In this document: one piece after another, positions 2,491-17,247 of the stretch
Numbering within the stretch: the first letter of the stretch is position 1
How the letters are laid out: every line of letters begins with the position of its first letter
Source of the DNA: an uncultured cyanobacterium
GTDB lineage: Bacteria > Cyanobacteriota > Cyanobacteriia > Cyanobacteriales > FACHB-T130
Length of the DNA stretch: 19,208 bases
Assembly: GCA_936920195.1 (NCBI GenBank)
Contig: CAKZHE010000145.1
Location: 1-19,208 of the forward strand
Direction: 5' to 3'
Program-made: the position numbers and the translations under genes
Notes under the pieces: generated by a model
The model's database searches: none
What the model was told of the DNA's origin: nothing
Seen by the model: only the letters and a program-made list of their open reading frames with translations

Positions 2491-3978
2491 ATGAACGATC
2501 AACCAGAAAAGATTTCTACTCCGACAAATCAAGAAGCGGTGAAAAACCTTACTGCTGGTAGAGACATTACAATTGGAAATATTACTCAAAAAGCTGGGGA
2601 CCATATAGTTAAAATCATCAAAAAACCAGTTAGTATTGCTGTTGGTATTTTTACCGCAATAGTTGGTACAGTTGGTATTATTTTCGCAGGTCGCAATACA
2701 AATAATTCCATAATCACTTATGGAAATGTTACAGATTCTACTATTGCTAATGAAGTAACTATTTATACAGGTGATTCTCCAGAAGTTAAGAAAAAGAAGA
2801 TAGAACAAGCTAAAAACATAATTGCTGTGGAGATATTCACAAATATCCACAACATAGATGCCAGACTGGGTTTAGTTGAAACTGCGCTAAAAGATGATAA
2901 CTTTGAGCAAAATCTACGGGATGTCCGTAACAAAGTTGCACCTTCTCTCAATGAAATCTTTGATTCAGGGTATGGCGTATTGATAAATCAGCAAACAATT
3001 TCATCTCTTCGAGCAGGATTTAATGGTCTTCCCTTAAATGAAGTGCGATCGCCATTGATTCAGGTATTAATTGATGGCAATGCAGATGCTAAAACAGTTC
3101 AAGCATTTTCCAGCAGTTTAACAGAAGTTCAATATGTGTCAGAATCCTTATTTAATGATTTATCGACGACACAGGAAACGTCTACAAAAATGGCACAATC
3201 TTCCAAAAAATTAAGCATAGCAGCCTATAATAAAAAGTCAATAAAGCTTGATGTAGCGCGATTGAAAAATCGTTCTCAAATTGCGTATCTTCGTGGTTTA
3301 ATAGTGCTAGATAGTCTAAAAATTACATTATCTAATGCCCAAGAGAGTCTTAGTTCTCTTAAGCATCTTGAGCCACGTCAACTTGTTACTAAAGAAGAAG
3401 CCATTCAACTGTTAACAACGAAAGTTAAAGAAGGAGAACGTATTCTAGCAGAAAGGACTATACTCTTGGCAGAAATAAAGAATTTACGGGACGCAGCATT
3501 AGATGAATATGCAAAACTTGAAGCGGCAGTAATCCAACCTTCTGATCCTTGGAATGTCGTTAGTGGTAAAGCCATTGCTTTACGCCAGCTAGGACGAACT
3601 ACTGAGTCTGTAGCAGCATTCTCCCGTTATGCTGATATGTTCTCTGAAAAAGATTCAACCGCAAAACAATATTCGCGAACTGCTCAACAATTTACAACTC
3701 AACTTCATAGTCTTCATGTTGACGGTGGCGTATATATATATGAGGTTGTACAAGGTGGAGTTGCCGAAAGTAATGGCATCAAAGTTGGTGATATTATTAT
3801 TCAATATGGAGATAAAGCGATTGCCAATATGCCTGATATTGTGATGGCTCTACATGATCATTCCATAGGAAATTCCATTCCAATAACATATTTGCGGATG
3901 AGTAGTGCTGGGGTATTTCAACGTCAAACAGTATCGGTTAATTCTGCTGCCATTGGTGCGTCAATGATGCCTATCTAA
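2491..3978 (+). CDS. single-pass membrane protein with a C-terminal PDZ domain. The N-terminal cytoplasmic part has a short G/I/V beta-repeat. The central part is long, helical, coiled-coil/TPR-like.
   Basis: 495-aa ORF. Predicted TM helix PVSIAVGIFTAIVGTVGIIFAG (aa ~46-67). The HtrA-type PDZ signature is GGVYIYEVVQGGVAESNGIKVGDIIIQYGDKAIANMPDIVMAL...IPITYLR. The N-terminus AGRDITIGNITQKAGDHIVKII resembles the C-terminus of the upstream ORF. Confidence 0.7.
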   Translation: MNDQPEKISTPTNQEAVKNLTAGRDITIGNITQKAGDHIVKIIKKPVSIAVGIFTAIVGTVGIIFAGRNTNNSIITYGNVTDSTIANEVTIYTGDSPEVKKKKIEQAKNIIAVEIFTNIHNIDARLGLVETALKDDNFEQNLRDVRNKVAPSLNEIFDSGYGVLINQQTISSLRAGFNGLPLNEVRSPLIQVLIDGNADAKTVQAFSSSLTEVQYVSESLFNDLSTTQETSTKMAQSSKKLSIAAYNKKSIKLDVARLKNRSQIAYLRGLIVLDSLKITLSNAQESLSSLKHLEPRQLVTKEEAIQLLTTKVKEGERILAERTILLAEIKNLRDAALDEYAKLEAAVIQPSDPWNVVSGKAIALRQLGRTTESVAAFSRYADMFSEKDSTAKQYSRTAQQFTTQLHSLHVDGGVYIYEVVQGGVAESNGIKVGDIIIQYGDKAIANMPDIVMALHDHSIGNSIPITYLRMSSAGVFQRQTVSVNSAAIGASMMPI

Positions 3979-4150: not shown

Positions 4151-4879
4151 TTGAATTTTGAATTGATAACAATGAAGCCATATCAACAAGTTCCCATTGA
4201 AGAATGCCAAGAAGCCTTAGTAGCAATTCCTCTGGAAAAATTTGCCGTTGAGTCGCCCCATCCCTACGAAAAACTGGGTGCGCCCTACGGAGAGAAATCG
4301 CCCTATTATCTCCGTCAAAGCGTCCTCGCGGCTCTTGAGCAAGCTCAAGATAATTTAGCAGAATATCGTCCCGGCTGGCGAATTCAAATTTTTGATGCCT
4401 ATCGCCCGATTGCCGTCCAACAATTTATGGTTGATTATACTTTTAATCAACTTGTCCAGGCTCAGGGACTGAAAATAGCCGAATTAAGTACCCCTCAGCA
4501 ACAAGAGATTCTAGAACAGGTTTATCAATTTTGGGCAGTTCCCAGCCACAACCCTGCTACCCCACCCCCCCACAGTACCGGGGCTGCCATTGATATTACC
4601 TTAGTCGATGGGACAGGCCAACCAGTAGATATGGGTTCAGCGATTGATGAAATTTCGCCCCAATCCCATCCCCACTACTTCGATCAAAAAACTCTGCCCA
4701 AAGAACTGGAATATCGCGATCGCCGTCATCTATTGTGGAAAGTGATGCACTTGGCAGGATTTCAGCGCCACCCCAATGAATGGTGGCATTTTTCCCTGGG
4801 CGATCAAATGTGGGCGTGGCTGTGCCAAAGGGAAAACCCAGCATTTGCAACTGTAGCTCGCTACGGTCGAGTAAAATAG
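4151..4879 (+). CDS. ddpX: D-alanyl-D-alanine dipeptidase (VanX/DdpX, peptidase M15D)
   Basis: 242-aa ORF. VanX family motifs are present: FDAYRP, the zinc-ligand motif HSTGAAIDITLVD, and EWWHFS. The true start may be the internal Met at 4172 (MKPYQQ). Confidence 0.85.
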   Translation: MNFELITMKPYQQVPIEECQEALVAIPLEKFAVESPHPYEKLGAPYGEKSPYYLRQSVLAALEQAQDNLAEYRPGWRIQIFDAYRPIAVQQFMVDYTFNQLVQAQGLKIAELSTPQQQEILEQVYQFWAVPSHNPATPPPHSTGAAIDITLVDGTGQPVDMGSAIDEISPQSHPHYFDQKTLPKELEYRDRRHLLWKVMHLAGFQRHPNEWWHFSLGDQMWAWLCQRENPAFATVARYGRVK

Positions 4880-4912: not shown

Positions 4913-5281
4913 GTGGCAGCATCCATGCGCGTTTACATCTTGCTATTCAATGCCCGGAAAGAAAACGAAGGTATTCATACCATCCGGATTGGCGATCGCA
5001 ACCGAGTGCTAATGTTCGAGTCAGAAGACGATGCGACTCGTTTTGGTTTAATGTTGGAAGCTCAGGATTTTCCCTGTCCTGAAGTCGAACCAATTGATGC
5101 CGACGAAGTGCGGGAATTTTGCCAAAGTGCTGATTATGAGTGGCAACTTGTGCCAGAAGGCGCTTTAGAGCTACCGCCAGAAACCAATCTGGAAGTAACT
5201 GACTGGCAACCAGAGGTCAAAAAACCAGATTTATCTGATGACCTGGACGACATTCGCCGCCAACTGGAACGATTATTGTAG
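4913..5281 (+). CDS. DUF3110-family protein (conserved in cyanobacteria and plastids)
   Basis: 122-aa ORF. MRVYILLFNARKENEGIHTI matches the DUF3110 N-terminal signature, and the C-terminus is acidic. The probable true start is the Met at 4925. Confidence 0.65.
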   Translation: MAASMRVYILLFNARKENEGIHTIRIGDRNRVLMFESEDDATRFGLMLEAQDFPCPEVEPIDADEVREFCQSADYEWQLVPEGALELPPETNLEVTDWQPEVKKPDLSDDLDDIRRQLERLL

Positions 5282-5298
5282 TACCGAAAAATATAGGC

Positions 5299-6213
5299 AT
5301 GGCAAATCTGGAAGAACGGGGGCATTTGCTGACAGAGCAGATTAATCCCAACAGTCAAAATTTAGATCAACTAACGTCTTTGGAATTAGTCGATCTGTTT
5401 AATCGGGAAGATGCTCAAACTCTAGCAGCGATCGCATCTGCCCGCCATCAGTTAGCCCAAGCCATTGACTTGATTGCCGAGGCACTGCGGCACGGGGGCA
5501 GATTATTTTACATCGGAGCGGGGACTAGCGGACGTTTAGGCGTGTTAGATGCGGCAGAATGTCCGCCGACGTTCTGTTCGCCCCCGGAACTGGTACAGGG
5601 GATTATCGCTGGGGGAGCGGCAGCGCTATTACGCAGTTCCGAAGAGTTGGAAGATAAAGCTGAAGATGGAGCCGCTGCGATCGCCCAAAGGCATATTACC
5701 CAATTAGATGTCGTTGTGGGCATTACTGCTGGGGGAACTACTCCCTATGTCTTGGGAGCCATCCAAGCTGCCCAACAACGGGGAGCCGCTACAGTTTACA
5801 TTGCCTGCGTTCCCGCCGATCAAGTTGCCATCGAAACCGACATTGATATCCGGCTGCTGGTTGGTCCGGAAGTAGTCGCCGGATCGACTCGTCTAAAAGC
5901 CGGAACTGTGACTAAAATGGCTTTGAATATCCTTTCCACCGGGGTCATGGTCAAGTTAGGCAAAGTCTACGGCAATCGGATGGTGGATGTAGCGGTGACA
6001 AATAAAAAGCTTCACGACCGGGCTTTAAGGATGTTACAAGATTTGACCAATCTCAGTCGAGAAGAAGCTGCTTATTTGCTCGAACAAAGCGGCAGATCGG
6101 TAAAATTAGCCTTATTAATGCACTGGACAGGTTTAGGCAAAGAAGAAAGCGATCGCCTACTGACCAAATATCAAGGTAATCTCAGATCTGCTGCCCTAAG
6201 TTATCAAAAATGA
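5299..6213 (+). CDS. murQ: N-acetylmuramic acid 6-phosphate etherase
   Basis: 304-aa ORF. SIS-domain signature RLFYIGAGTSGRLGVLDAAECPPTF. The catalytic-region motifs GSTRLKAGTVTKMALN and LKLALLM are typical of MurQ. Confidence 0.9.
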   Translation: MANLEERGHLLTEQINPNSQNLDQLTSLELVDLFNREDAQTLAAIASARHQLAQAIDLIAEALRHGGRLFYIGAGTSGRLGVLDAAECPPTFCSPPELVQGIIAGGAAALLRSSEELEDKAEDGAAAIAQRHITQLDVVVGITAGGTTPYVLGAIQAAQQRGAATVYIACVPADQVAIETDIDIRLLVGPEVVAGSTRLKAGTVTKMALNILSTGVMVKLGKVYGNRMVDVAVTNKKLHDRALRMLQDLTNLSREEAAYLLEQSGRSVKLALLMHWTGLGKEESDRLLTKYQGNLRSAALSYQK

Positions 6214-6409: not shown

Positions 6410-7921
6410 ATGTTTACTGCATCAGAAACTACCGCCACAGTTTTAATCGTATTAGTCGCTTTAGGCATTCTCGGTTGGGGCTTTTATCGTGCTAAACCCT
6501 TCGGTAAAATCGGCATCCTAGCCTGGTTGCAATCCGTAGCCCTGATGACTCCCTGGCTATTATTTTTCGGCTTATTTGCCGCCGGAATTTACATCAATTT
6601 AGTTGGCATTCTCTTGCTGCTAATTGTTTCCACTGGTTTGTATATCTTCTTGGGCAGTAAACTGCGAGCCGCTAGTCAAGATTTGGGATTGAGAGAACAG
6701 GTGGCTCGCGCTGTCAGAGAGCGACAAGAATCATCAAATCAACCTACTGAGGCAAGTGCCGCGACAACTCCACCTACAGATCCTCTCAAAGTCGAAGTTG
6801 TGCCAATTCCCGATGAAGATTTGAAAAAGATTCAGGGAATTTTTGGGTTTGAAACCTTTTTTGCTACAGAAACTATACCCTATCAGGATGGGGTGATTTT
6901 TAACGGCAATCTGCGGGGGGAACCAGCAACAGTCTACGAACGACTATCTGCTAGTTTAAAAGAAAGATTGAGCGATCGCTATCGGTTATTCCTGATTCAA
7001 AATCCCGAAGAAAAACCCGTAGTCATTATCCTCCCCAGCAGCAACCAACCTCAACCCAGTACCACTGCTCAAAAAGCTTTAGCCGTAGCTCTTTTCCTGG
7101 CTACCGTACTTACCAGCTTAGAAACAGCCAGTTTTTTACTCGGTTTTAGTTTATTTGATAACTTCAATCGTCTCCCCGAAGCCTTACCCCTAAGCTTAGG
7201 TTTTTGGGTAGTCTTAGCCGCCTACGAAATTGGACGGCGATGGGTAGCCAAACAAGAAAAAGTTAGCCTCAGTTGGCCTTTGTTTATTCCCACCGTTCAA
7301 ATTGGATCTTTTGGAGCCATTGTTCGATTTGAATCCCTGCTCCCCAACCGCAGCACCCTGTTTGATATTGCCCTAGCCGGACCCGCAGCCAGCGCGATTA
7401 TTTCAGTCATCATGTTACTAACTGGCTTATTGCTTTCTCATCCCGGCAGTTTATTTCAGATTCCATCGGAGTTTTTTCAAGGCTCAATTTTAGTTGGCAG
7501 TTTGGCTCGCGTTGTCCTCGGTTCGGCTCTCCATCAAACGATTGTTGATATTCACCCGCTAACTGTAATTGGCTGGTTGGGTTTAGTAATTACCGCCTTA
7601 AACTTAATGCCTGCCGGACAACTGGATGGAGGGCGAATTATCCAAGCTATTTACGGACGAAAAATTGCTCGTCGCTCTACCGTTGCCACCCTAATTATTC
7701 TGGGGATTTTATCATTTGCAAATCCCGGCAATCCTTTAGTTTTATATTGGGCGATTGTCATTCTCTTTTTGCAACGGGATTTAGAACGGCCTAGTTTGAA
7801 TGAACTTTCGGAACCAGATGATGCTAGAGCCGCTTTAGGATTATTAGCATTGTTTTTAACCATTGCCACACTCTTACCCCTAACTCCCGGATTAGCTGGT
7901 CGTCTGGGAATTGGCGGATAA
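6410..7921 (+). CDS. site-2-protease (peptidase M50) family membrane protein, EGY-like, with a degenerate zinc-binding motif
   Basis: 503-aa polytopic ORF. The conserved third motif NLMPAGQLDGGRI (NxxPxxxLDGG) is present. Where HExxH is expected, the sequence reads LAAYEIGRRWVA (H to Y and H to R). Confidence 0.7.
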   Translation: MFTASETTATVLIVLVALGILGWGFYRAKPFGKIGILAWLQSVALMTPWLLFFGLFAAGIYINLVGILLLLIVSTGLYIFLGSKLRAASQDLGLREQVARAVRERQESSNQPTEASAATTPPTDPLKVEVVPIPDEDLKKIQGIFGFETFFATETIPYQDGVIFNGNLRGEPATVYERLSASLKERLSDRYRLFLIQNPEEKPVVIILPSSNQPQPSTTAQKALAVALFLATVLTSLETASFLLGFSLFDNFNRLPEALPLSLGFWVVLAAYEIGRRWVAKQEKVSLSWPLFIPTVQIGSFGAIVRFESLLPNRSTLFDIALAGPAASAIISVIMLLTGLLLSHPGSLFQIPSEFFQGSILVGSLARVVLGSALHQTIVDIHPLTVIGWLGLVITALNLMPAGQLDGGRIIQAIYGRKIARRSTVATLIILGILSFANPGNPLVLYWAIVILFLQRDLERPSLNELSEPDDARAALGLLALFLTIATLLPLTPGLAGRLGIGG

Positions 7922-7929
7922 TATCAATT

Positions 7930-8010
7930 GTAGGTTGGGTTGCGCGACAGCAAAACCCAACAAACTACTTATAAATGTTGGGTTTCCACTGTCGTTCCAA
8001 CCCAACCTAC
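7930..8010. repeat. dispersed hairpin repeat, copy A, present as an imperfect inverted pair (MITE- or terminator-like)
   Basis: gtaggttgggttgcgcgacagcaaaacccaacaaac (7930-7965) is identical over 36 nt to 18978-19013. Its imperfect reverse complement lies at 7977-8010. The unit contains an internal hairpin gttgggtt...aacccaac. Confidence 0.7.
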
Positions 8011-8162
8011 TTTGAGTATTATTGAGATCTGCATCACTAGGCCGAAAGTAAATTATCACTAACCAAACCCCTCTGAAATCCTAGTAAGTCAGGAAAGTCC
8101 CATGAATACTATGAAGTAAAGGGATAATTGCTTTCTCAAGCCCTGCTACTAGAGCCGATTTT

Positions 8163-8744
8163 ATGAATGACTCAGAGTGCCAAGAAGATATCATCGCTGC
8201 CAATGAGGAATCGCTGTTGCAATTGAAGCGATCGCTCATTCTCTCCCAAGGCGATTTTTCGATAATATTGGCTTATTGTCCCTCAAAACGCCTGCGGAAG
8301 CAAATTGCCCAACAGCTACATGAGTCATTAGCGATCGCCATCCAAGATCTTACTCTGCCTCCGTCTGCCCAAACGCTATATACTACAATTTATCATGCTC
8401 TGCCCGAACCCCATCCCGAAGCCTTGATGGTATTTGGTTTAGAGTCTGTGGTCAATATTGAAGAATTGTTAGTTGCCACCAACTTTGTCCGCGACGAGTT
8501 TCGCAAGCAATTTTCTTTTCCCCTAGTTCTGTGGGTTAATCAAGAAATTTTACAAAAAATGATTCGGCTCGCCCCAGATTTTAAGAATTGGACAACCACA
8601 GCGATTCGCTTTGAACGAGTCTGCAATAAAGTAGTGGATTTTCCCCATCGTCCCAGCACCTCAACCAAGAGGAGAAAAAAGGCTAAACATAGTTTACCAC
8701 CAATCCAACGCCGATATGATGACGATCGCCCAATCAGTTTATAG
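8163..8744 (+). CDS. hypothetical protein (193 aa) with a basic C-terminal tail
   Basis: ORF track. Coding-like composition. It is convergent with the 8746..9495 ORF and their stop codons abut. From memory, the motif block GDFSIILAYC...LMVFGLESV...FPLVLWVN...LAPDF resembles an N-terminal module of large cyanobacterial multidomain proteins. This is unverified. Confidence 0.5.
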   Translation: MNDSECQEDIIAANEESLLQLKRSLILSQGDFSIILAYCPSKRLRKQIAQQLHESLAIAIQDLTLPPSAQTLYTTIYHALPEPHPEALMVFGLESVVNIEELLVATNFVRDEFRKQFSFPLVLWVNQEILQKMIRLAPDFKNWTTTAIRFERVCNKVVDFPHRPSTSTKRRKKAKHSLPPIQRRYDDDRPISL

Positions 8745-8745
8745 T

Positions 8746-9495
8746 TTATCGCCTTCTCCGTTTAGTTCTTGTGGGACGTTCTGAGCGATACTCCCGCTCA
8801 TCATCGGGATATTCTAACTGGCGGCTAACTTCAGCAAAAAGATCTCTTCGCAGATAGGGATAGTCGCTTACCCACAAATTACGATCGGGAATATAAATAT
8901 CAGAAGTTTTGACAATGCTGCTGAGATCTCCCCGGTAGGACATAACTAGCATCTCCGCAATTAAACCTGGTGCGATCGCTTTGTGTTCCCGACGCAAAGG
9001 AACTTGCAATTGGGTAGTAAATCCGGTTTCATCTCCTACTTCAATATTCAGCCTGCGTTCGCGATTTTCGACAATTACTAATTGGCCTTTTTTATTAACA
9101 GTTTCTTCTTCCCCAATCAACTCTTCGGTAATGTAGATATCTAAAACTTGACCGCGCCAAAAGCCACTATAGGGGAGTTTGCGATTGCTGGCATTGCGAA
9201 TGCTCGCCCATAATACGGGACCCCACAACCAGTATAAACCAAGAAAAATCCCAATTAAAAATAGGATGCCTTCGGAATCTTCCCCCAAAAATGACCGGAG
9301 CAGCAGCAAAACGACGATCCCGACTACCGAAATCAACAGTCGTTTTAAAAAATCTGGAAATTTCCCCCAATAGAAGGTGTACTGAGGGCCAGTCGCCATC
9401 AGGGGGATAATCTGTTCAAATTTTTTGCGGGTTAAGGGGATGAGCATAAGGCCAGAAGCGACTAAAAAGCCAATAATTTTAATTATAACAAACAC
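8746..9495 (-). CDS. hypothetical membrane protein: 3-4 N-terminal TM helices, a soluble C-terminal domain and an Arg-rich tail
   Basis: 249-aa ORF. Its start lies 22 nt downstream of the GH3 gene stop on the same strand, so it is probably the last gene of the operon. Confidence 0.55.
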   Translation of the reverse strand: MFVIIKIIGFLVASGLMLIPLTRKKFEQIIPLMATGPQYTFYWGKFPDFLKRLLISVVGIVVLLLLRSFLGEDSEGILFLIGIFLGLYWLWGPVLWASIRNASNRKLPYSGFWRGQVLDIYITEELIGEEETVNKKGQLVIVENRERRLNIEVGDETGFTTQLQVPLRREHKAIAPGLIAEMLVMSYRGDLSSIVKTSDIYIPDRNLWVSDYPYLRRDLFAEVSRQLEYPDDEREYRSERPTRTKRRRR

Positions 9496-9517: not shown

Positions 9518-11044
9518 TTAAAAAAGGGATTTCAATGTTTGTAGCAGTGTATCATTAATGGGGGTTGCGGTCAAAATTGGATGTTTAATTCCGCCCCAAA
9601 TACTCCCGTTACGAACGCGGTCTAATGCTAAAATTTCAGGAATGCGATCGCCTATCAAAACCTGGGTTGGAGCAAGTTGCTCGAGCAGTCTGGCGCGGCG
9701 ATAGTGGATGGATTGGGATAAGAGATTATCCAAATCTTGAGCAATGATATCTGGGGTTTGGATGGCTGAATCTAGTAACAGGATATAGTGCGGGGGATGG
9801 GCAACGGGAACTAAGGTTTTAAAACAGTTTTCTGGCAAGTTTAATTGATTTAATACCTGATGAACAAAGGTTTCTTGAAGTTTTTCGCCAACTAAATCGC
9901 TAATAGAGCTATCGCGCCCTAGAAATTCTAAGCAAGGAGTGTTGTGATACCAATGGGTGACGCGAATGCGATCGCCAATCCGATAGCGATATAAACCGCC
10001 TTTTTGGGATAGGATAATAGTGTATTCCTGCCCGGTGCTGAGTTCGGGTAATTTGTATAAATTGCCAGCATTATCTTCAAACTCAAAAAAAACTTCATCT
10101 AAAACTGGTACATATCCCTCGGCGGCAATTAAGGGAATTGTCATGGGAGCTTCGGTAGCTAATAAACCTTTGCCTTGAATAAATACGCCGGGAAAGTGCG
10201 ATCGCAGTCCTTTAGCTTGATCGGCGGCATTAGCACTATCCCAACAAGAAATTAGTTTTAAATTTGACCAAAGTTCTGTCCAAGGAATATTAGGCTCTGT
10301 TAGCAGTTGTAGACGATGGGCAGAAAGGCGATCGCGCAATTCTGCTTGTAATAACAGATGATTTTCTTGAATATATTTTAAATGGACTTGCAAAAAACTG
10401 GGACTCCAAACAGAAATAATTTCGAGATTTTCTGCCTGTAATAAGGCTAAACAAAGTTGATGTTTAAACCTTTGGGGATCGCGGAGGCGATTAAGTCCAG
10501 CAGGCATGACTAACCAAGGGCGCAACAGCCACTGCAACCAACTATCTAAATAGTCTAAATCATCTTGCAAAGATAGGGGGCGATCTGCGGAGGAATTGGC
10601 TGAATCTAATTGAGGGGAAATACAAGCATAAAGTTTTCCGGTGGAGAATTTCGGTCCATGTTGAATTAAATCCTGCGCCCAGATACAAAACATCTGGTTA
10701 AATGATTTCCGCAGGGAACGAGTATAGGGAATCCATTTAACTGCCCCGCTACTACCAGAAGTTTTTTCATAAAATAAGATTTGTTCGGGAGTTAGGGGAA
10801 TTTTATTTGGTTTAGAATCAGTTAAAATCCAAGGTTCAATGGTATCATAATTCACAATGGGAACGCGCTGCCAATCGGCAACAGAATTAATTCCCAAGAA
10901 TTGACCATACTGGCTAAAAATTAGGCGATCGCAGATATTTTGTTGGACGGCGGCTTGAGTTAATTCGGGGTGATTGAGGGCTTGCTGAAATCGGCGAGCC
11001 GTTGGGGTGAGAACCTGCCCAAAAAGCTGAATAAACTTCCGCAT
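9518..11044 (-). CDS. GH3-family acyl-acid amido synthetase (adenylate-forming; JAR1/GH3-like)
   Basis: 508-aa ORF. GH3 motifs are present: EKTSGSSGAVKWIPYT (the SSGTxxGxxKxIP box) and GLYRYRIGDRIRV (the YRYxxGD box). Confidence 0.78.
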   Translation of the reverse strand: MRKFIQLFGQVLTPTARRFQQALNHPELTQAAVQQNICDRLIFSQYGQFLGINSVADWQRVPIVNYDTIEPWILTDSKPNKIPLTPEQILFYEKTSGSSGAVKWIPYTRSLRKSFNQMFCIWAQDLIQHGPKFSTGKLYACISPQLDSANSSADRPLSLQDDLDYLDSWLQWLLRPWLVMPAGLNRLRDPQRFKHQLCLALLQAENLEIISVWSPSFLQVHLKYIQENHLLLQAELRDRLSAHRLQLLTEPNIPWTELWSNLKLISCWDSANAADQAKGLRSHFPGVFIQGKGLLATEAPMTIPLIAAEGYVPVLDEVFFEFEDNAGNLYKLPELSTGQEYTIILSQKGGLYRYRIGDRIRVTHWYHNTPCLEFLGRDSSISDLVGEKLQETFVHQVLNQLNLPENCFKTLVPVAHPPHYILLLDSAIQTPDIIAQDLDNLLSQSIHYRRARLLEQLAPTQVLIGDRIPEILALDRVRNGSIWGGIKHPILTATPINDTLLQTLKSLF

Positions 11045-11652
11045 TATTCCACCTTTTCATTAATATAAAGTGTGGTCTGAAATTCTATATAAGCGCGATC
11101 GCCAATTTCTGTTCCTGGACCAAGATGGGAACCCGCACCTAGAAAAACATCATTGCCAACTTTAACTTTTTTCAGATATAACATTAAGTTTTGTTTGCGG
11201 GGTTTGATAATGTGAGAACACATGATCACGCGATGTCCAACCAGAACGCGATCGCCAATTTCTATGAAACCGCGATCGGCAATCTCTAATCCCGGAGTCC
11301 AATAAACATTTTTCCCCACCTTCGCTCCCCAAAGTCGCAACCACCAGGAAAATACCCCTGGAATTAGCCGCAGCACCACCTCTAACGCTGGAATTGCAAT
11401 ATAAATAGCTTGAATTTGATGACTGCCCCACCAAGGGCTATAATCCTTACTTAGCAAATAACTAATTCCCTCCTGGACAGGATAGAAATATTGATGCCAT
11501 CGGTACACTAGCAATGGGAATCCATAGAGAGAAAATAACACAGCCAAAAGACCAAATATACTCTGTGAATGCACCCAATAAACTATTGATGCTCCAGTTA
11601 AAAGTAACACTGAAGCCGGAAAAAACAAAAGAACTTTGCTGAGAAAAGTCAT
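11044..11652 (-). CDS. membrane-anchored hexapeptide-repeat (left-handed beta-helix) acyl/acetyltransferase
   Basis: 202-aa ORF. Two N-terminal TM helices. The C-terminus carries LbH repeats: IGDRVLVG, VGNDVFLGAGSHLGPGTEIGDRAYI. Its start overlaps the GH3 stop by 1 nt. Its stop is 2 nt from the upstream gene. Confidence 0.6.
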   Translation of the reverse strand: MTFLSKVLLFFPASVLLLTGASIVYWVHSQSIFGLLAVLFSLYGFPLLVYRWHQYFYPVQEGISYLLSKDYSPWWGSHQIQAIYIAIPALEVVLRLIPGVFSWWLRLWGAKVGKNVYWTPGLEIADRGFIEIGDRVLVGHRVIMCSHIIKPRKQNLMLYLKKVKVGNDVFLGAGSHLGPGTEIGDRAYIEFQTTLYINEKVE

Positions 11653-11653
11653 A

Positions 11654-12406
11654 TTATTTAAAAGGAAAAAAAAGCTTTTTGGTCAATGTTAGGGGTGTGG
11701 TAATTCCGATTTCTGCTGGCAAATCTTTCCCTGGATAAAATGTCCCATGCCATCTATCCCAGAGTTTAAAGTTAGCCCCATAATTGTAGTAGTGAACGCT
11801 ACAAGCATGATGACGAGCATGATCTTGGGGTAAAATTAGCCAAGGCGAGAGGTAGGAGTAGAGCCAACTATGGGGAGAAATAATCAATCGGCTATGTCGC
11901 CATAAATCCAAGGCTGAAGTTAGGCTAATTCCCAAAAGATAGCCTGTGGAATCAGCGAGTAGATATAAAAACAGGGCATGAATCCACAAATAAATAATTA
12001 AAAAACTTGCCCACAGAGTATTTCTAGATGTGCCGAAAACATCCATTTGAGTAACAGTATGATGAGTTTGATGAACTTGCCAAAACCATCCCCTATGCAA
12101 TAAACGATGATTCCAGTAATACCCATAATCGACTACCACGAAACTGAGGATAAAAGTAAAAATTGGCGATAATTGTAGACATCCCTGTTGAGCAGGCAGT
12201 AAATAATTATAAAGTTGATAAATCAAGGTAATTTGCAGCAGGGGAATTAACATTCCTTGAATAGATAATCCGGTACTATCTAGCAGCCAATCTTGCCAAC
12301 TTTTCGTTTTAAGTTGAGTTCTAGCCACGCGATCGCAGATTGTCCAGATTATCAAGCTCCCAAAAACTATTAAAACTAAAAGTTGGGTAAACATTGGCAT
12401 ATTCAC
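11654..12406 (-). CDS. fatty acid hydroxylase superfamily (sterol desaturase / FA hydroxylase, membrane di-iron) enzyme
   Basis: 250-aa hydrophobic ORF. Three His boxes: HRLLH (HX3H), HQTHH (HX2HH) and HARHH (HX2HH). Confidence 0.8.
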   Translation of the reverse strand: MNMPMFTQLLVLIVFGSLIIWTICDRVARTQLKTKSWQDWLLDSTGLSIQGMLIPLLQITLIYQLYNYLLPAQQGCLQLSPIFTFILSFVVVDYGYYWNHRLLHRGWFWQVHQTHHTVTQMDVFGTSRNTLWASFLIIYLWIHALFLYLLADSTGYLLGISLTSALDLWRHSRLIISPHSWLYSYLSPWLILPQDHARHHACSVHYYNYGANFKLWDRWHGTFYPGKDLPAEIGITTPLTLTKKLFFPFK

Positions 12407-12409
12407 ACC

Positions 12410-13432
12410 TCAAACCCAAAAGGTAACTTTAACTGATTGGTGGGAAAGCGATCGCGGATCTTCTCCAGCAGCGATCGCGTCTCGAATTGATTCGACAAAG
12501 ACATGAATTGTATCTGCTGGAGTATTCTGAAATTTTGTGCCATATTTGGCGATCGCCTCACCCTGAATCCCCAATATTTTCACATCTTGTCCAATAATAT
12601 GTTGTGCCGTCCACCAGACAAACGGACGAGCAAACCAATTCCAAATCCCATAATTATAAGTGACATCTGTATAAACCAAAGTTGTATTATCTGTTTCTGG
12701 AATCGATTGGCTAGTAATCAACAAACGGCGATTTTTTCCCATTTTATATTCCACAGAGGTAATATTGGGCATATAAAAGCGATCGATATGCTCAATCTTA
12801 GTTCCTTGGGCATTGAGAAAACCAGCATACCAACCTAAATTGGTTGTTTCATTCTGATATTCTACCAACACGCTACCATCTTTTCGCTCGACAGTCATCT
12901 CTAGTTTTTGCTTACGAGAAGTCCGAAAAACTCCGGGATGAACAGAAGCCGTATGGGGAATATCAATAAAGTTTTCGGCACAATTAGTCACATTGTTCTG
13001 AAAACGATTAATTACTCGGACTGTTTCCCAACCTGGTTGTCCATAATAAGGCATAGGAAAAGGCGTAAAATCTTCGCTGCTGCTATCGGCTAACCGGACA
13101 TAAACATAGCCATCCTGTTCTTTGGTAGCATAAACCTTGGCTTGCCGATGGGGAGAAGGTTTAAAATTATCACCTTCCGAGGGAACAGCAATTACCTTGC
13201 CATGACTATCATATACCCACCCATGATAAGGACATTGCAAAGCATGATTACAAACTTTTCCCACCGACAAACGGCTATTACGATGCAAACAGCGATCGCG
13301 CAATGCCACAGGTTCGCCATTTTCGCCGCGAAATATTGCCAGCCACTCTCCTAAAACGGTTCTTGCTAGTACCGTCTTTGGTTGCAGTTGTTCGCTCAGT
13401 GCTATAATATACCAGAAATCTTCAAATTTCAT
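12410..13432 (-). CDS. Rieske [2Fe-2S] non-heme iron oxygenase (alpha-subunit-like; KshA/PAO/SxtT-type size)
   Basis: 340-aa ORF. Rieske motif CLH-X16-CPYH (RCLHRN...QCPYHGW). Mononuclear iron motif NCAENFIDIPHTASVHPG (E/N-x2-D-x2-H-x4-H). Confidence 0.8.
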   Translation of the reverse strand: MKFEDFWYIIALSEQLQPKTVLARTVLGEWLAIFRGENGEPVALRDRCLHRNSRLSVGKVCNHALQCPYHGWVYDSHGKVIAVPSEGDNFKPSPHRQAKVYATKEQDGYVYVRLADSSSEDFTPFPMPYYGQPGWETVRVINRFQNNVTNCAENFIDIPHTASVHPGVFRTSRKQKLEMTVERKDGSVLVEYQNETTNLGWYAGFLNAQGTKIEHIDRFYMPNITSVEYKMGKNRRLLITSQSIPETDNTTLVYTDVTYNYGIWNWFARPFVWWTAQHIIGQDVKILGIQGEAIAKYGTKFQNTPADTIHVFVESIRDAIAAGEDPRSLSHQSVKVTFWV

Positions 13433-13477
13433 GCTGGTTAGTTGGCAAAGTCGAAGACAATGATATCATTATAAATT

Positions 13478-13768
13478 ATGACATTACAGGAATTGCAAAA
13501 ACAGGTATTGCATTTACCAATTAGCGATCGCTGTATATCTACTCTTTCTAATGAACGAATTTTAGCACTGACAGAACTAGAAATGGCAGCAGATCAAGAT
13601 GCTCGGTTGAGTGAATTACTCGATCGCCAGCAGGCAGGCATTCTTGCCGAAAATGAGTTTCCAGAGCTACAAATTCTTATGCAGACTTATCAAGAAGGAT
13701 TATTGCGGAAAGCAATTGCCCTCAGTGAAGCTGTTAAACGTGGATTAATTGAACCTTTGAGCCAGTGA
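13478..13768 (+). CDS. hypothetical small protein (96 aa), on the opposite strand in the gap between the ferredoxin and Rieske genes
   Basis: ORF track. It occupies a 374-bp gap with no competing minus-strand ORF. It is helical and Glu/Leu-rich. It weakly resembles small addiction-module / antitoxin-like components (MTLQELQKQVLHLPISDR...). This is unverified. Confidence 0.35.
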   Translation: MTLQELQKQVLHLPISDRCISTLSNERILALTELEMAADQDARLSELLDRQQAGILAENEFPELQILMQTYQEGLLRKAIALSEAVKRGLIEPLSQ

Positions 13769-13806
13769 ATCAGATTTCTGAACAAGTCCGAATACAAGAA
13801 TGTGAT

Positions 13807-14133
13807 TTATTGTTTTATTCGGCGAATTTCAAGATTATTCGTTAGGTTAATTTGGCAGGCTAATCGAGCATTTGGATTTTCGGGATATAATGTATCTAGC
13901 ATCTCTTGTTCATCCGGTTGAGGGGGAGAAATATCGCCAATTACCTCAACCAAACAAGTCCCACAAATTCCCGTTCGGCAACCAAACAATAGCGGTGAAT
14001 TGCGAATATTGAGATGCTCAGATAAATTTTGATGCGCTGACAGAATTACCGGAGGATATTCTGTGCCTGGAAAGTAAATCGTACATTGCTCAGACATGGC
14101 AAAAATTCTCCCGCTCAAACCGTTCAAAAGCAC
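13807..14133 (-). CDS. plant-type [2Fe-2S] ferredoxin (electron donor for the Rieske oxygenases)
   Basis: CX4CX2C...C motif: GCRTGICGTC ... ARLACQ. The likely true start is the internal Met (MSEQCTIYF) at about 14097. That would reduce the overlap with the upstream gene to a few nt. Confidence 0.75.
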   Translation of the reverse strand: MLLNGLSGRIFAMSEQCTIYFPGTEYPPVILSAHQNLSEHLNIRNSPLLFGCRTGICGTCLVEVIGDISPPQPDEQEMLDTLYPENPNARLACQINLTNNLEIRRIKQ

Positions 14134-15301
14134 TCTGTTGTGTTGCCAAATATCGGGGAATGGAATTACCTGCCATTAAAGACATTTCTCGATTCCTTTT
14201 CCACAAATAATCCAATTTTTCGATATAGACTTTATAAGATGCCATCGCCTCTTGATGAGTCAAAAAACTTCGGTGTAACCCTTCCGATTCTTCCAGAAAA
14301 CAGCGCCGCATCATCGCTTTGGCATCTCGATCGCTCATTTCAAAAATAGGCGATCGCAACACCCGATAAATCTTACCATACAGGGCGGGATCGTACCAAA
14401 AAATCCCATTAATCGCCGCTGAAAAGTGAAAATGATCCCGCTGACATCCCAGCAAACCTAAATTAGCTACCAGACTTTCAAAAGCTGTTGGCGGTGCTAA
14501 ACAGGTAATTACATCCTGAGAAACAATTGTGGAACTATTGAAATGAAAGCTTTCATCTAGAAAGTGATAATAAGAAATTTGGGCGGGAATCGGAGCCTGT
14601 TCTTGATGGGGATGCTTTTGATAATAATTACTGAGTTTGTGCTGAACAAGTTTGCCATTCAGAGTTCGCACCCCCCGCACCGTGAAATACTGACAAGCCA
14701 AGAAAGTATTATTGGCAGAAATTAGCCCAAAATACTGTAATTGGATCTTTTTCCACCAGGCTTTTAAGGCATTTGTATCGGCAAATACCATTGTTTCGGT
14801 AAAGGGTCCCCGCATCGGATAAGTGAAAATTAGCTCTCCAAATAAAGCCTGTTCAACCTGTTTAGAAATTGTCCGAAAGGCATTGATATGAGCGCGTTCT
14901 TGGGAGGATTCCAAATCTAACGTATCGCAAATTAATCGAAAGTCTTCCTGGGCATAAAGTCCGGTAGCACTGGTTTGATTAAAGAAAATAGTGGCAATTT
15001 CCGCCGAAACTATTTGGGAATAATATGCCACCCAATAAAGTTGATTTAAAATTACTCGTTGCTGGGGGCTAGCTTGTTCCCATAAAGGCGTACCATAGAG
15101 TAAGGAAAACTCCTCTGGATTCCAATATTCATCCCGGCAATCTTCATACCGAAACTTGCCTACTGTTTCATCCATCAAAGCCGTATGATCTTGTTGCTGG
15201 TTACGGTTGTGGTTAATTTGCAACTTCCGATATACTAGGGAACTACTAGATAATTGAGCAGGAGCTAGTGACATAGAATTAGCTGTTTTTAAAAAACACA
15301 T
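14090..15301 (-). CDS. dimetal-carboxylate (ferritin-like) oxygenase. It is AurF-type N-oxygenase-like, or possibly CylC-type halogenase-like.
   Basis: 403-aa ORF. EXXH motifs at QERAH and DESFH, with upstream carboxylates (SAEIATIFF). It overlaps the upstream ORF by 13 nt. The probable start is Met10 (MSLAPAQ). Confidence 0.5.
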   Translation of the reverse strand: MCFLKTANSMSLAPAQLSSSSLVYRKLQINHNRNQQQDHTALMDETVGKFRYEDCRDEYWNPEEFSLLYGTPLWEQASPQQRVILNQLYWVAYYSQIVSAEIATIFFNQTSATGLYAQEDFRLICDTLDLESSQERAHINAFRTISKQVEQALFGELIFTYPMRGPFTETMVFADTNALKAWWKKIQLQYFGLISANNTFLACQYFTVRGVRTLNGKLVQHKLSNYYQKHPHQEQAPIPAQISYYHFLDESFHFNSSTIVSQDVITCLAPPTAFESLVANLGLLGCQRDHFHFSAAINGIFWYDPALYGKIYRVLRSPIFEMSDRDAKAMMRRCFLEESEGLHRSFLTHQEAMASYKVYIEKLDYLWKRNREMSLMAGNSIPRYLATQQSAFERFERENFCHV

Positions 15302-16191
15302 TGATGAGCAGGTAACGGTTGAAAAGCGCCGCGATTTTCCAGACTTTCTACAATTGATTGTACCGAGTCTCCAACCATGAGCGATCGCAACAGATCCAAT
15401 CTCGTCCGACTATGATTTTCCGTATCCAATTCTTGCAAAATTTGAATCTTCTGCTTCCGGGAAAGATGTCCTTTCACCTGTTCAATTGCCCCCAACACAT
15501 TTTGAGGTCCCACTTGCACCATCAACAAAAACCGTGACAACAAATCAATGATATTTCCTCGACTAGATGGTGACAGGGAAATTTGATGAAACAGAATATT
15601 TCCGGTACTGTGATGTCGCGCTTCTGCTTGCAAAAAACTCCGAAACACCTCTGCCAAAGGTTGATGATGACATTCTTTCGCCAGTCGGCGGTAATGGCTC
15701 AATCCCCATCCTTCCAAAACCACTTGCAGCACAAACAATAATACCGTTTTATCCGCATCTTCAATGACTTCTGCCAGTAAAGATAAAAACGGATCTTGAC
15801 TATTAGTTAGTTCTGATTCTGGACAGAAATAGCTCAAATGACTAAGATGAATAGTTTCATCAGCCGTAAACAATCCATAAAGCATCCGCTCCTCAATTGT
15901 TTCTGCTAGCAATACCATTTTCGCCATATAGCCCACCCCAGCTTTTTCGATGAAATATGCCTCTTCTAAAAGGCTGCGATTGGCAATTTCTACCATCGCC
16001 AATTGTTCGGCTGTACTAGCTTCTTGAAAAATTTTTACTTGGGGCAAATTAAAAAATGAAGCATCCCAATAAGTAGCGGGCAAATTGGGAGAATTTTTGC
16101 TGCCATTCTGATTTGGTAATGCCGCTGCCAGCACTTTCCGCAATCGGTTATCAGCATTGATATGGGGCAAATCAATTTCAAGCATTGGCAA
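15289..16191 (-). CDS. ferritin-like di-iron carboxylate protein (second putative oxygenase)
   Basis: 300-aa ORF. Twin E...EXXH pattern: LEEAYFIEKAG ... ADETIHLSH and VLEGWG ... QAEARHH. It is not ADO and not AcsF (see rejected). Confidence 0.5.
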   Translation of the reverse strand: MPMLEIDLPHINADNRLRKVLAAALPNQNGSKNSPNLPATYWDASFFNLPQVKIFQEASTAEQLAMVEIANRSLLEEAYFIEKAGVGYMAKMVLLAETIEERMLYGLFTADETIHLSHLSYFCPESELTNSQDPFLSLLAEVIEDADKTVLLFVLQVVLEGWGLSHYRRLAKECHHQPLAEVFRSFLQAEARHHSTGNILFHQISLSPSSRGNIIDLLSRFLLMVQVGPQNVLGAIEQVKGHLSRKQKIQILQELDTENHSRTRLDLLRSLMVGDSVQSIVESLENRGAFQPLPAHQCVF

Positions 16192-16197
16192 TCCTAA

Positions 16198-17247
16198 TTA
16201 GTTTTCCGAAAAAGAATGAGAGCGTTCAAGTTTATCCTGGCTTTCAACAGCTTGCCATGTCCCCCAAGTCAGGGCTTTTTGGTGATTAACGTGCTGAATA
16301 AATTGTAAAATTGAGCGATCGGCAATTGTGGGAGTTTTGAGATCGAATTGAATTGTTTGAAATACTTGAGTATCTCCAGTAGCAAAGTAATTTCCTACCT
16401 GCTGAGTTACCCAAAGTAAAAACCGATTCACCGCCCATCCCCAACATCCCAACCGCTTAGGTGTCACCAGAATAGTTTGCCCTTCAGTTTTACCATCCTC
16501 CATCATTCTTAGGGCAAATATAATATAGAAATGCAGAAGATCTGGACCGAGGGTGACAGTTCCCGTACTACCATACCAATAGCACATACTATAGGTAACT
16601 TCCTGACGGTATAGAGGACGAATTAAACGGATTAACCAAGATTCATCTCCTCCCCGCGTAGTATTGCTAAAAGTCACTGCATTAGGATTGAGATCTTGCT
16701 GTTCAAAGACAATTTTCAAAGGTAAATTGTGGACGGTATTAAAGTGATGAGCATCAATGGCATTAATCAGTAAGACATTAGGATGGCAATTTTTAATAAA
16801 GTGAGTTCCCAAAATATAATCGCAATCTATTTCTGCTAATTCCGGAACAAAAGGTAACGAACTTGGCATTTCTTCTCCTGCCCAAACCCAAATCATCCCA
16901 TATTTTTCGGCGGTATGCCAGGTTTTGAGACATACAGGTAAAGGATTTTTTTGTGAGGGAATATCTACACAAATTCCCTGCTCGTTATATTTCCAATTAT
17001 GGAAAAAGCAGCGAATACCATCGCCGTCTACTTTGCCTTCCGCTAGATGAGCGCCCATGTGCGGGCAATAGGCATCTATCGCCACCACTTTACCGCTATT
17101 TCCGCGATAAATGGCTAAGTTTTTGCCTAGTAGCTTCAGGGGTTTAACTTGGCGGATTTTTAATTTTCGGGATGGTAGCGCCCAGTACCATCCCTCAACG
17201 AATTGGCAGGGATTATTGAAGGTGGATTGTGCTATAGTAGAAGACAT
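16198..17247 (-). CDS. Rieske [2Fe-2S] non-heme iron oxygenase, first gene of the cluster
   Basis: 349-aa ORF. Rieske motif CPH-X16-CFFH (YCPHMGAHL...IRCFFHNW). Iron motif NAIDAHHFNTVH (D-x2-H-x4-H). Confidence 0.8.
   Translation of the reverse strand: MSSTIAQSTFNNPCQFVEGWYWALPSRKLKIRQVKPLKLLGKNLAIYRGNSGKVVAIDAYCPHMGAHLAEGKVDGDGIRCFFHNWKYNEQGICVDIPSQKNPLPVCLKTWHTAEKYGMIWVWAGEEMPSSLPFVPELAEIDCDYILGTHFIKNCHPNVLLINAIDAHHFNTVHNLPLKIVFEQQDLNPNAVTFSNTTRGGDESWLIRLIRPLYRQEVTYSMCYWYGSTGTVTLGPDLLHFYIIFALRMMEDGKTEGQTILVTPKRLGCWGWAVNRFLLWVTQQVGNYFATGDTQVFQTIQFDLKTPTIADRSILQFIQHVNHQKALTWGTWQAVESQDKLERSHSFSEN

Follow-up and report, generated by a model that had tools for sequence, protein, structure and literature searches.

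The window analysed here, a stretch of 19,208 nucleotides from an uncultured cyanobacterium, encodes a homologue of the EGY-type site-2 proteases (S2Ps) of the M50 family in which both zinc-ligand histidines of the HExxH motif have been replaced, the motif reading YEIGR. We consider it likely that this gene is a vertically inherited EGY-type S2P which lost its zinc site in place and has been retained for a non-proteolytic function. The protein is best seen as a probable "dead protease" of recent and independent origin rather than as a relative of EGY3, the inactive S2P homologue of plants.

Domain architecture of the S2P homologue

The gene is a complete open reading frame (ORF) on the plus strand (6410..7921), as are all the features given below; it begins with ATG and codes for 503 amino acids. 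In the family alignment its N-terminus, MFTASETTAT, matches the orthologue consensus. We recovered 120 full-length cyanobacterial homologues with 64-97% identity, all 120 of which carry precomputed assignments to the Pfam domains PF27677 (EGY3_M) and PF02163 (Peptidase_M50). The first-pass annotation had assigned the protein to the S2P/M50 family on the strength of its letters; this is borne out by a match to PF02163 over residues 262-430 (7193..7699; E=1.1e-15; score 58 bits, cutoff 27.2), which marks the membrane core, and by alignment to the Methanocaldococcus jannaschii S2P (PDB 3B4R). Among solved structures the latter is the best match in both sequence (E=6.8e-4) and fold, and permits assignment of the zinc ligands; unlike the window protein, it has intact H54/H58/D148-type ligands and no GNLR domain, and the similarity, at about 19% identity, covers the core only (218-224 aa). 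In a Foldseek search of the PDB with the predicted model (mean pLDDT 64.9) it was the sole significant match (E=1e-3, probability 1.00, TM 0.53 on the target, rmsd 9.8). An NCBIfam scan matched no family, and scans for promoters and terminators near the ORF returned background levels only.

N-terminal to the core lies a hydrophobic hairpin (residues 1-86; 6410..6667) of two long predicted helices, which extend over residues 5-57 and 64-104 in the AlphaFold model and correspond to Kyte-Doolittle segments 1-29 and 34-86; full-length alignment of this hairpin was obtained only with cyanobacterial orthologues. It is followed by a variable linker (residues 94-131; 6689..6802), which is probably disordered (pLDDT <50), and by a soluble alpha/beta domain corresponding to EGY3_M, with approximate limits at residues 133-215 (6806..7054). 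The model predicts in this domain a helix at 135-144 and strands at 150-158, 161-168, 191-196 and 204-209, and the PF27677 assignment is indirect, being read from the precomputed domains of a 97% identical protein, P0001. The domain contains the sequence GNLR (residues 166-169; 6905..6916), the signature of the EGY family (PMC6131628), of which G166, N167 and R169 are invariant in an alignment of 44 sequences. In the membrane core, the second S2P motif, AGpxxN/S/G (as defined in bioRxiv 10.1101/101204), is retained as AGPAAS (residues 323-328; 7376..7393), with G324 and A326 invariant and A323 and P325 nearly invariant in the same alignment. Likewise, as the first-pass annotation had noted, the third motif, NxxPxxxxDG, is intact, in the form NLMPAGQLDGG (residues 398-408; 7601..7633); it aligns with the equivalent stretch of 3b4r. 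All 44 sequences, those of the motif-less lineages described below included, share N398, P401, the zinc-ligand D406, G407 and G408.

Loss of the zinc-binding motif

In S2Ps the HExxH motif holds the zinc and the aspartate of NxxPxxxxDG provides the third ligand (bioRxiv 10.1101/101204; PMC4284730). A phmmer search of the PDB aligned ...VVLAAYEIGRRWVAK... of the window protein onto ...VSVVLHELGHSYVAK... of the M. jannaschii S2P, with Y272 and R276 falling exactly on the two zinc-ligand histidines of HELGH and E273 retained. This residue-for-residue correspondence, which also holds against the canonical orthologues, upholds the earlier reading of YEIGR (residues 272-276; 7223..7237; codons TAC GAA ATT GGA CGG) as a degenerate HExxH. 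We looked for a genuine HExxH elsewhere in the 503 residues and found none. Histidine occurs at three positions only (344, 375 and 382), none of them lineage-specific; H344 and H382 show the same conservation in canonical HExxH orthologues and are therefore not new compensating ligands, and they may well lie too far from the active site. Moreover, the lineage-specific changes introduce no additional His, Cys, Asp or Glu. With only one of three zinc ligands left and no histidine to stand in for the others, the protein most likely no longer binds the catalytic zinc or cuts substrates.

The equivalent column reads HE[ILFMV][GA]H in canonical orthologues. HExxH is present at this column in 107 of the 120 closest protein clusters, in 80 of 80 orthologues from the genome collection and in 77 of 80 from metagenomes, these three sets being partly overlapping. 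Judged by these counts, YEIGR is a rare deviation and not chance variation. Two further motif-less variants occur in the orthologue group, namely GEIAR/REIAR in Microcoleus and HEIAN in a Phormidium. When the motif columns were masked, HEIAN grouped with the canonical P0020/P0051 and GEIAR with the canonical P0056, each in 100 of 100 bootstraps, and groupings made up of motif-less proteins alone appeared in 0 of 100. Thus, within the group HExxH has been lost on at least three independent occasions. The Microcoleus and Phormidium genes lie in other gene neighbourhoods, and positional orthology has been shown for the window lineage only. Each substitution in the window lineage is a single transition, with CAY->TAY giving Tyr and CAY->CGY giving Arg. 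Arg, Tyr, Asn and Gln are the most accessible replacements of His, and the recurrence of Arg may reflect mutation bias.

These variants also bear on the idea that the window protein still cuts substrates within the membrane by means of a non-canonical site, for instance one in which Glu273 and Asp406 act with Tyr272 or bind a metal through water, or one with a different metal. Glu273, Asp406, N398, P401 and the AGP of the second motif are invariant in all three motif-less lineages, and constraint on the M50 core equals that on a housekeeping neighbour, both of which count in its favour. Against it, arginine is no metal ligand, and the three lineages, whose residues are Y, G/R or H at the first position with R or N at the second, do not converge on any common new site; the want of both histidines and of new candidate ligands in the window protein points the same way. 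Furthermore, substitutions of the HExxH histidines abolish activity in S2P, RseP and SpoIVFB. We therefore regard a working protease of this kind as unlikely, although the retained Glu273 and Asp406 might allow some remaining or changed chemistry.

Gene neighbourhood and evolutionary affinities

Upstream of the S2P gene, Pfam searches identified genes for an M15 D-Ala-D-Ala dipeptidase (4151-4879), a DUF3110 protein (4913-5281) and a SIS-domain protein (5299-6213). The same order, M15-DUF3110-SIS-S2P, is found at loci with HExxH-bearing S2Ps (L004, L007, L009-L014, L016, L023 and others) and also around a second YEIGR copy on contig L001. The closest canonical proteins, such as those of Coleofasciculus sp. 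FACHB-T130 (P0002, annotated as 'site-2 protease family protein') and Aphanothece sp. CMT-3BRIN-NPC111 (P0011, from L002), are 70-72% identical to the window protein over the full length. They share with it the domain order, GNLR, AGPxxG/S and NLMPAGQLDGG, and often the three upstream genes; they differ in having an intact HExxH and are presumed to be active. On the evidence of gene order and alignment, the window gene is the positional orthologue of the catalytically intact cyanobacterial EGY-type S2P. We found no characterised member of this orthologue group in the literature; the candidates for its Synechocystis counterpart are Sll0862 and Slr0643.

Cyanobacteria usually have several S2Ps; Synechocystis, for example, has four and Anabaena variabilis five (PMC4284730). 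Conceivably, the window protein might depend on a catalytically intact S2P paralogue of its own cell, serving as a partner, competitor or gatekeeper that adjusts the paralogue's access to substrates rather than as a stand-alone holdase, and its retained substrate-groove motifs would permit competition for the same clients. However, hetero-oligomers are not known in the family, and no second S2P gene lies within the 19,208-nt window; obligate dependence on a paralogue seems improbable to us. The names of further cluster representatives gave no sign either way of a second EGY-type paralogue in cyanobacteria.

The first-pass annotation had described the protein as a non-catalytic EGY3-like paralogue. 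Its non-catalytic nature is likely for the reasons given above, but its descent from an ancient branch that is kin to plant EGY3 and has long been non-catalytic is very hard to maintain. The two do resemble each other: the plant EGY3 proteins (the Arabidopsis At1g17870 family; for instance P0261, 'Zinc metallopeptidase EGY3, chloroplastic', of Rubroshorea leprosula) also have GNLR and lack the HExxH histidines while keeping the glutamate (SEIAT as against YEIGR), and the window protein carries a Pfam domain that bears the name EGY3_M. However, EGY3_M is found in all 120 homologues, catalytic ones too. The window protein is 72% identical to canonical cyanobacterial orthologues, the figures being 38% for the EGY1-like plant protein and 32% for the EGY3 representative; a neighbour-joining tree built from cluster representatives places it within the HExxH-bearing cyanobacterial proteins, a long way from the separate, deep EGY3 clade, and its synteny is likewise with HExxH orthologues. 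Of the three lesions described for EGY3-like proteins it shows only one, since it keeps AGPxxS and LDGG, whereas EGY3-like proteins lack the former or have LEGG instead (bioRxiv 10.1101/101204); representatives of the EGY3 clade have ARxxxx in place of AGPAAS, and in P0261, P0243 and P0267 the ligand Asp is replaced by Glu, giving LEGG. EGY3 is old, has been conserved throughout the plants and resides in chloroplast thylakoids, whereas the loss described here is confined to one little-sampled cyanobacterial lineage whose protein has the cyanobacterial-type hairpin. The loss is thus an in-place, lineage-specific event within a catalytic orthologue group and is convergent with EGY3.

As for the remaining plant paralogues, the EGY1-like P0145 is 38% identical over 371 residues, and its family architecture is the same as that of the window protein between the GNLR domain and the C-terminus. 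EGY1 and EGY2 are active chloroplast S2Ps with reported proteolytic activity (PMC4284730; PMC6131628) and, unlike the window protein, they have HEIGH and a transit peptide that replaces the cyanobacterial N-terminal hairpin.

Purifying selection on the YEIGR lineage

An exact-sequence search located the window protein on no public contig, the nearest relative being P0001, the 97% identical protein encoded by the independent JGI metagenome contig L001; scans of the genome collection and metagenomes gave no further YEIGR members, their best match being 70% identical. P0001 has the same YEIGR, with its Arg codon reading CGA rather than the CGG of the window. YEIGR is thus not a sequencing error, since it recurs in an independent assembly with a synonymous difference inside the motif. 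The S2P genes of the two contigs differ by 52 synonymous and 13 non-synonymous changes, with a dN/dS of 0.076 (Fisher p=2e-21), a value that comes from two sequences only, spans the time since their split (dS 0.15) and does not tell which function was selected. By part, dN/dS is 0.29 for the N-terminal 130 residues, 0.018 for residues 131-261 and 0.062 for the M50 domain; five of the 13 amino-acid differences fall at residues 98-115 and three more (34, 83 and 84) in the hairpin. For comparison, the neighbouring SIS gene has a dN/dS of 0.065, and the GH3 and Rieske genes 0.21-0.24. The S2P gene is under strong purifying selection.

Outside the motif, alignment shows the protein to be conserved at the normal family level: once close relatives are left out, it deviates at 5 conserved columns as against a canonical mean of 3.7, and 27 of 107 canonical sequences have 5 or more such deviations. 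An initial count of 7 against a mean of 0.89 had suggested general decay around the active site, and this signal disappeared when the close relatives were left out. Individual changes such as G329A/L333V in the window protein and P325S in Microcoleus are anecdotal. The lineage is known from two sequences and its two motif changes are single transitions, but with an intact, full-length frame, conservation and selection of this order and an independent copy of the motif, a neutrally drifting relic or a sequencing or assembly error is scarcely credible.

Functional implications

Normal conservation combined with strong purifying selection suggests that the YEIGR protein has retained a useful non-proteolytic function. 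Its ancestor would have been an ordinary cyanobacterial EGY-type S2P, comprising the membrane hairpin, the soluble GNLR/EGY3_M domain and the M50 core, in which both HExxH histidines were replaced. By analogy with plant EGY3, the most likely role is the binding of transmembrane or membrane-proximal clients in the substrate groove, where they would be held, stabilised or sequestered. The part of regulator or scaffold put forward in the first-pass annotation would likewise be an analogy. EGY3, which lacks HExxH and is regarded as inactive, has been reported to bind and stabilise CSD2 (PMC12227537; PMC9355673), a Cu/Zn-SOD2, at the thylakoid membrane (PMC12227537). More speculatively, the side chain of Arg276 could fill the place that the zinc has left and form a pair with the strictly retained Asp406 and/or Glu273, thereby keeping the membrane helices packed. 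Loss of catalytic residues with retention of client binding is a concept shared with the plastid FtsHi proteins and the iRhom/Derlin rhomboid pseudo-proteases (PMC8197885, PMC6451368, PMC8641752); their folds and catalytic classes are unrelated, making this an analogy only.

The one S2P pseudo-enzyme that we found described in the literature is plant EGY3, which has been called plant-only (PMC9355673). The YEIGR protein indicates that the same outcome has arisen independently, recently and minimally in a bacterium, with only two His ligands changed and the remainder conserved to the usual degree, in a gene on which selection matches in strength that acting on a housekeeping neighbour and which belongs to an orthologue group with at least two further losses. 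Such a minimal loss under selection, together with the further independent losses, points to a protease-independent function in EGY-type S2Ps. Since pseudo-proteases are common in other protease families, this result is useful rather than surprising.

A broader proposal, which we offer tentatively and think possible though on balance doubtful, is that a core function which needs no proteolysis is conserved among EGY-type S2Ps, such as that of a holdase or scaffold in the membrane serving proteins of the thylakoid or envelope, and that selection from cyanobacteria through to chloroplasts has acted mainly on this function. On this view the zinc site could be dispensed with and would have been shed repeatedly, often with an Arg taking the place of the metal and pairing with the Asp and Glu that remain. 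Candidate sheddings would include the three or more in the present orthologue group, an older Pseudanabaenaceae-type clade (RExxx), the glaucophyte Cyanophora, plant EGY3 and a large eukaryotic 'SQxVQR' clade. If this proposal holds, no natural 'catalytic-dead knock-in' by which the two functions might be told apart would be younger or cleaner than the YEIGR lineage. In practical terms, the natural alleles YExxR, GExxR and HExxN could be introduced into model cyanobacteria to part catalytic from non-catalytic roles.

A cyanobacterial S2P homologue without the zinc-binding histidines

The ORF at 6410-7921 (+ strand, ATG start) encodes a 503-aa protein, residues 262-430 of which match the Pfam Peptidase_M50 family (PF02163; E=1.1e-15, 58 bits against a cutoff of 27.2); an NCBIfam scan of the protein matched no model. 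The sole related solved structure detected by sequence with HMMER is the M. jannaschii S2P (3b4r, E=6.8e-4), bearing out the S2P/M50 membership proposed in the first-pass annotation. In the HMMER alignment the query segment VVLAAYEIGRRWVAK falls onto VSVVLHELGHSYVAK of 3b4r, which places Tyr272 and Arg276 at the positions of both zinc-ligand histidines; the HExxH was rightly read as degenerate, namely YEIGR (residues 272-276, nt 7223-7237, +). Query residues 384-422 align onto the 3b4r segment with NLIPAFPMDGG and include NLMPAGQLDGG (398-408, nt 7601-7633, +), the third conserved motif, which is intact as had been noted. This alignment also shows that Glu273, the general base, and Asp406, the third ligand, are retained, and the protein contains GNLR (166-169, nt 6905-6916, +) and AGPAAS (323-328, nt 7376-7393, +). 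A search for alternative histidine ligands found none: there are only three histidines (344, 375 and 382), and H344 (kept in 119 of 121 orthologues) and H382 (116 of 121) are not compensatory, being conserved in orthologues with and without HExxH. The first-pass reading of the sequence itself is thereby confirmed on every point.

An AlphaFold model built from 44 orthologues, of moderate confidence (pLDDT 64.9), predicts a pair of long helices at the N-terminus, then a disordered linker (94-131), and beyond it a small alpha/beta domain (~135-210) and a membrane core made up of helices; at this confidence its single significant fold match in the PDB is again 3b4r (E=1e-3). Foldseek finds the soluble GNLR/EGY3_M part (residues ~133-215, window 6806-7054) weakly similar (E 0.24-0.9) to periplasmic domains of XcpY/GspL and PulM/GspM of type II secretion, with a TM-score on the target of 0.52-0.63 and a local model confidence of only 60-75; a ferredoxin-like fold is possible.

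Repeated motif loss within one orthologue group

The best 120 homologues, every one of them cyanobacterial and full length, show 64-97% identity to the query, and all carry PF27677 (named EGY3_M) and PF02163. The motif column reads HE[ILF..][GA]H in 107 of these 120, GEIAR in ten Microcoleus proteins and HEIAN in two (Phormidium sp. CCY1219 and a relative); YEIGR is confined to the query and P0001, a 97% identical metagenomic protein. In two further, partly overlapping orthologue sets HExxH is found in 80/80 proteins from one-genome-per-species contigs and at 77/80 metagenome loci, the remainder being GEIAR (two) and REIAR (one). Across the searched collections the YEIGR lineage comprises two sequences, on a long branch 28% from the nearest canonical orthologue. 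Of the four Synechocystis S2Ps, Sll0862 is reported to be thylakoid-localised and uncharacterised (PMC6878006).

In a tree of the 121 orthologues (all trees are neighbour-joining with Kimura-corrected distances) the three motif-less groups are interrupted by HExxH sequences. After masking of the motif columns, HEIAN joins the canonical P0020 and P0051, and GEIAR the canonical P0056, each in 100/100 bootstraps, and an exclusively motif-less grouping was recovered in 0/100. The first motif position also varies among these lineages (Y, G/R, H). There have been at least three independent losses inside one orthologue group, and on this sequence evidence the window protein appears to be an S2P pseudo-protease derived independently inside an otherwise catalytic group. 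In the literature consulted, S2P pseudo-proteases are described for plant EGY3 only. The outcome will be no great surprise to specialists in pseudo-enzymes; with its clean series of natural alleles, the group allows a protease-independent role of EGY-type S2Ps to be put to a direct test.

Further motif-less groups occur among the more distant representatives, the EGY3 clade being one. A cyanobacterial clade (P0123, P0132, P0135, P0136 and P0140; 43-48% identity to the query), apparently separate and older, has RE[AIL]xx for HExxH and 'AP' for 'AGP', with LEGG in one member; two members are from Pseudanabaenaceae. The glaucophyte Cyanophora protein P0138 has SYLSR in the motif position. About 20 cluster representatives (P0149-P0191; 700-1100 aa), presumed eukaryotic from length and tree position, have SQxVQR, with the Glu lost too, and retain NLLPIRQLDGG. 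This group and the Cyanophora protein have the appearance of additional S2P pseudo-proteases, so far unrecognised, from outside the land plants.

Proposed function

Histidine substitutions in HExxH abolish activity in S2P, RseP and SpoIVFB. A role of HExxH and the Asp in zinc binding is stated in bioRxiv 10.1101/101204 and PMC4284730. In the window protein two of three zinc ligands are replaced, with no change to the remainder of the active-site scaffold or to the soluble GNLR domain; we infer that it would lack the capacity to hold a catalytic zinc and would not be a protease. EGY3 binds Cu/Zn-SOD2 and stabilises it (PMC12227537), and by analogy the window protein may still bind or hold client proteins of the membrane. 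More speculatively, Arg276 could occupy the former metal site, paired with Asp406 and Glu273. One of the two His positions is repeatedly taken by Arg (YEIGR, GEIAR/REIAR, RExxx), and single representatives have it at the second (HELGR, HEFAR, HEAAR); this recurrence may reflect mutation bias, since a single transition turns His into Arg and the exchange is common. Residual non-canonical proteolysis is improbable: the retention of Glu273 and Asp406 is the sole point in its favour, but no new ligand set is common to the independent lineages. Similarly improbable is a form of the pseudo-protease idea in which the protein works only as the partner or competitor of an intact paralogue.

Relationship to plant EGY3 and selection on the motif-less gene

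The first-pass annotation had suggested a non-catalytic EGY3-like paralogue. The loss of both histidines stands and inactivity is probable, but the EGY3-like part does not hold. In a tree of 50%-identity cluster representatives the query belongs to a cyanobacterial clade whose proteins have HExxH, with the plant EGY3 clade far off, and its identity is 72% with canonical cyanobacterial orthologues, 38% with an EGY1-like protein of plants and 32% with the EGY3 representative P0261 ('Zinc metallopeptidase EGY3, chloroplastic'). EGY3-like proteins are without HExxH and AGpxxN/S/G and have Asp replaced by Glu in NxxPxxxxDG (bioRxiv 10.1101/101204); P0261 has SEIAT, ARxxxx for AGPxxG, and LEGG. Of the three lesions the window protein has just one, the lack of HExxH. 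It has GNLR, the signature of EGY-family proteins (PMC6131628), and with one of three EGY3 lesions is thus an EGY-type member outside the EGY3 clade. Upstream of the gene lie an M15 D-Ala-D-Ala dipeptidase, a DUF3110 protein and a SIS-domain protein (Pfam); the order M15-DUF3110-SIS-S2P recurs in L001, the metagenome contig encoding P0001, and at many HExxH loci (L004, L007, L009-L014, L016 and L023 among them), making the window gene a positional orthologue. Identity, tree, synteny and motif pattern together make an ancient EGY3-like paralogue highly unlikely.

L001, an independent JGI metagenome contig (Ga0366735_10373485) syntenic with the window, also encodes YEIGR, with the Arg codon CGA in place of CGG, which contradicts the sequencing error that had been raised as a possibility. 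Between the two S2P genes there are 65 differences in 1512 nt (52 synonymous, 13 non-synonymous), which give, for these two sequences, dS=0.152, dN=0.0116 and dN/dS=0.076 (Nei-Gojobori; Fisher test on sites, p=2e-21). By region dN/dS is 0.29 in the N-terminal 130 residues (hairpin and linker), 0.018 in the GNLR domain, 0.062 in the M50 core and 0 at the C-terminus; the neighbours give 0.065 (SIS), 0.093 (hexapeptide transferase), 0.14 (orf193), 0.21 (Rieske) and 0.24 (GH3). As this divergence is all later than the shared loss, the motif-less protein has been under purifying selection matching that on a housekeeping neighbour. Decay or artefact is very improbable in view of this dN/dS, the unbroken reading frame and the presence of the motif in a second assembly.

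Erosion of the active site beyond the motif was also considered and rejected: a count that keeps close relatives in the reference set is circular, and with these excluded the query deviates at 5 conserved columns outside the motif, against a canonical mean of 3.7, 27 of 107 canonical proteins having at least 5. The two histidines aside, its conservation equals that of any orthologue.

Gene neighbourhood

Directly 3' of S2P, L001 has ~2.4 kb (6618-9046) absent from the window at ~8011-8020, consisting of two genes (230 and 480 aa) without a Pfam match; its flanks align to the window at 95-97%, and the difference is an indel between two close strains. Two conserved ORFs of no Pfam family lie at 8163-8744 (+) and 8746-9495 (-) in the window. 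In several Nostocales/Fischerella loci (L015, L024 and L029; 46-58% identity) the 193-aa one of the two is present again, 2-3.5 kb 3' of the S2P orthologue, which suggests a loose conserved linkage. At 2491-3978 (+) is a 495-aa protein in which a C-terminal PDZ (residues 411-470) is the one domain recognised, its N-terminal 400 residues having no Pfam match; L001 lacks this protein at the corresponding place and has PIN-domain and YidD genes upstream instead. In Microcoleus L082 (1-4360) a GEIAR S2P gene adjoins genes for a phage-type integrase and a primase-like protein (DUF5906/D5_N), which places it beside an integrated mobile element. The co-oriented run at 9518-17247 (-) encodes a GH3-family adenylating enzyme, a hexapeptide acyltransferase, a fatty-acid-hydroxylase-type di-iron enzyme, a Rieske/VanA_C oxygenase, a 2Fe-2S ferredoxin, a weak AurF-like di-iron protein, a 300-aa unknown and a second Rieske protein, and resembles a biosynthetic or tailoring cluster rich in oxygenases; its first four genes are common to L001, which then diverges (DUF4435 and an AAA ATPase).
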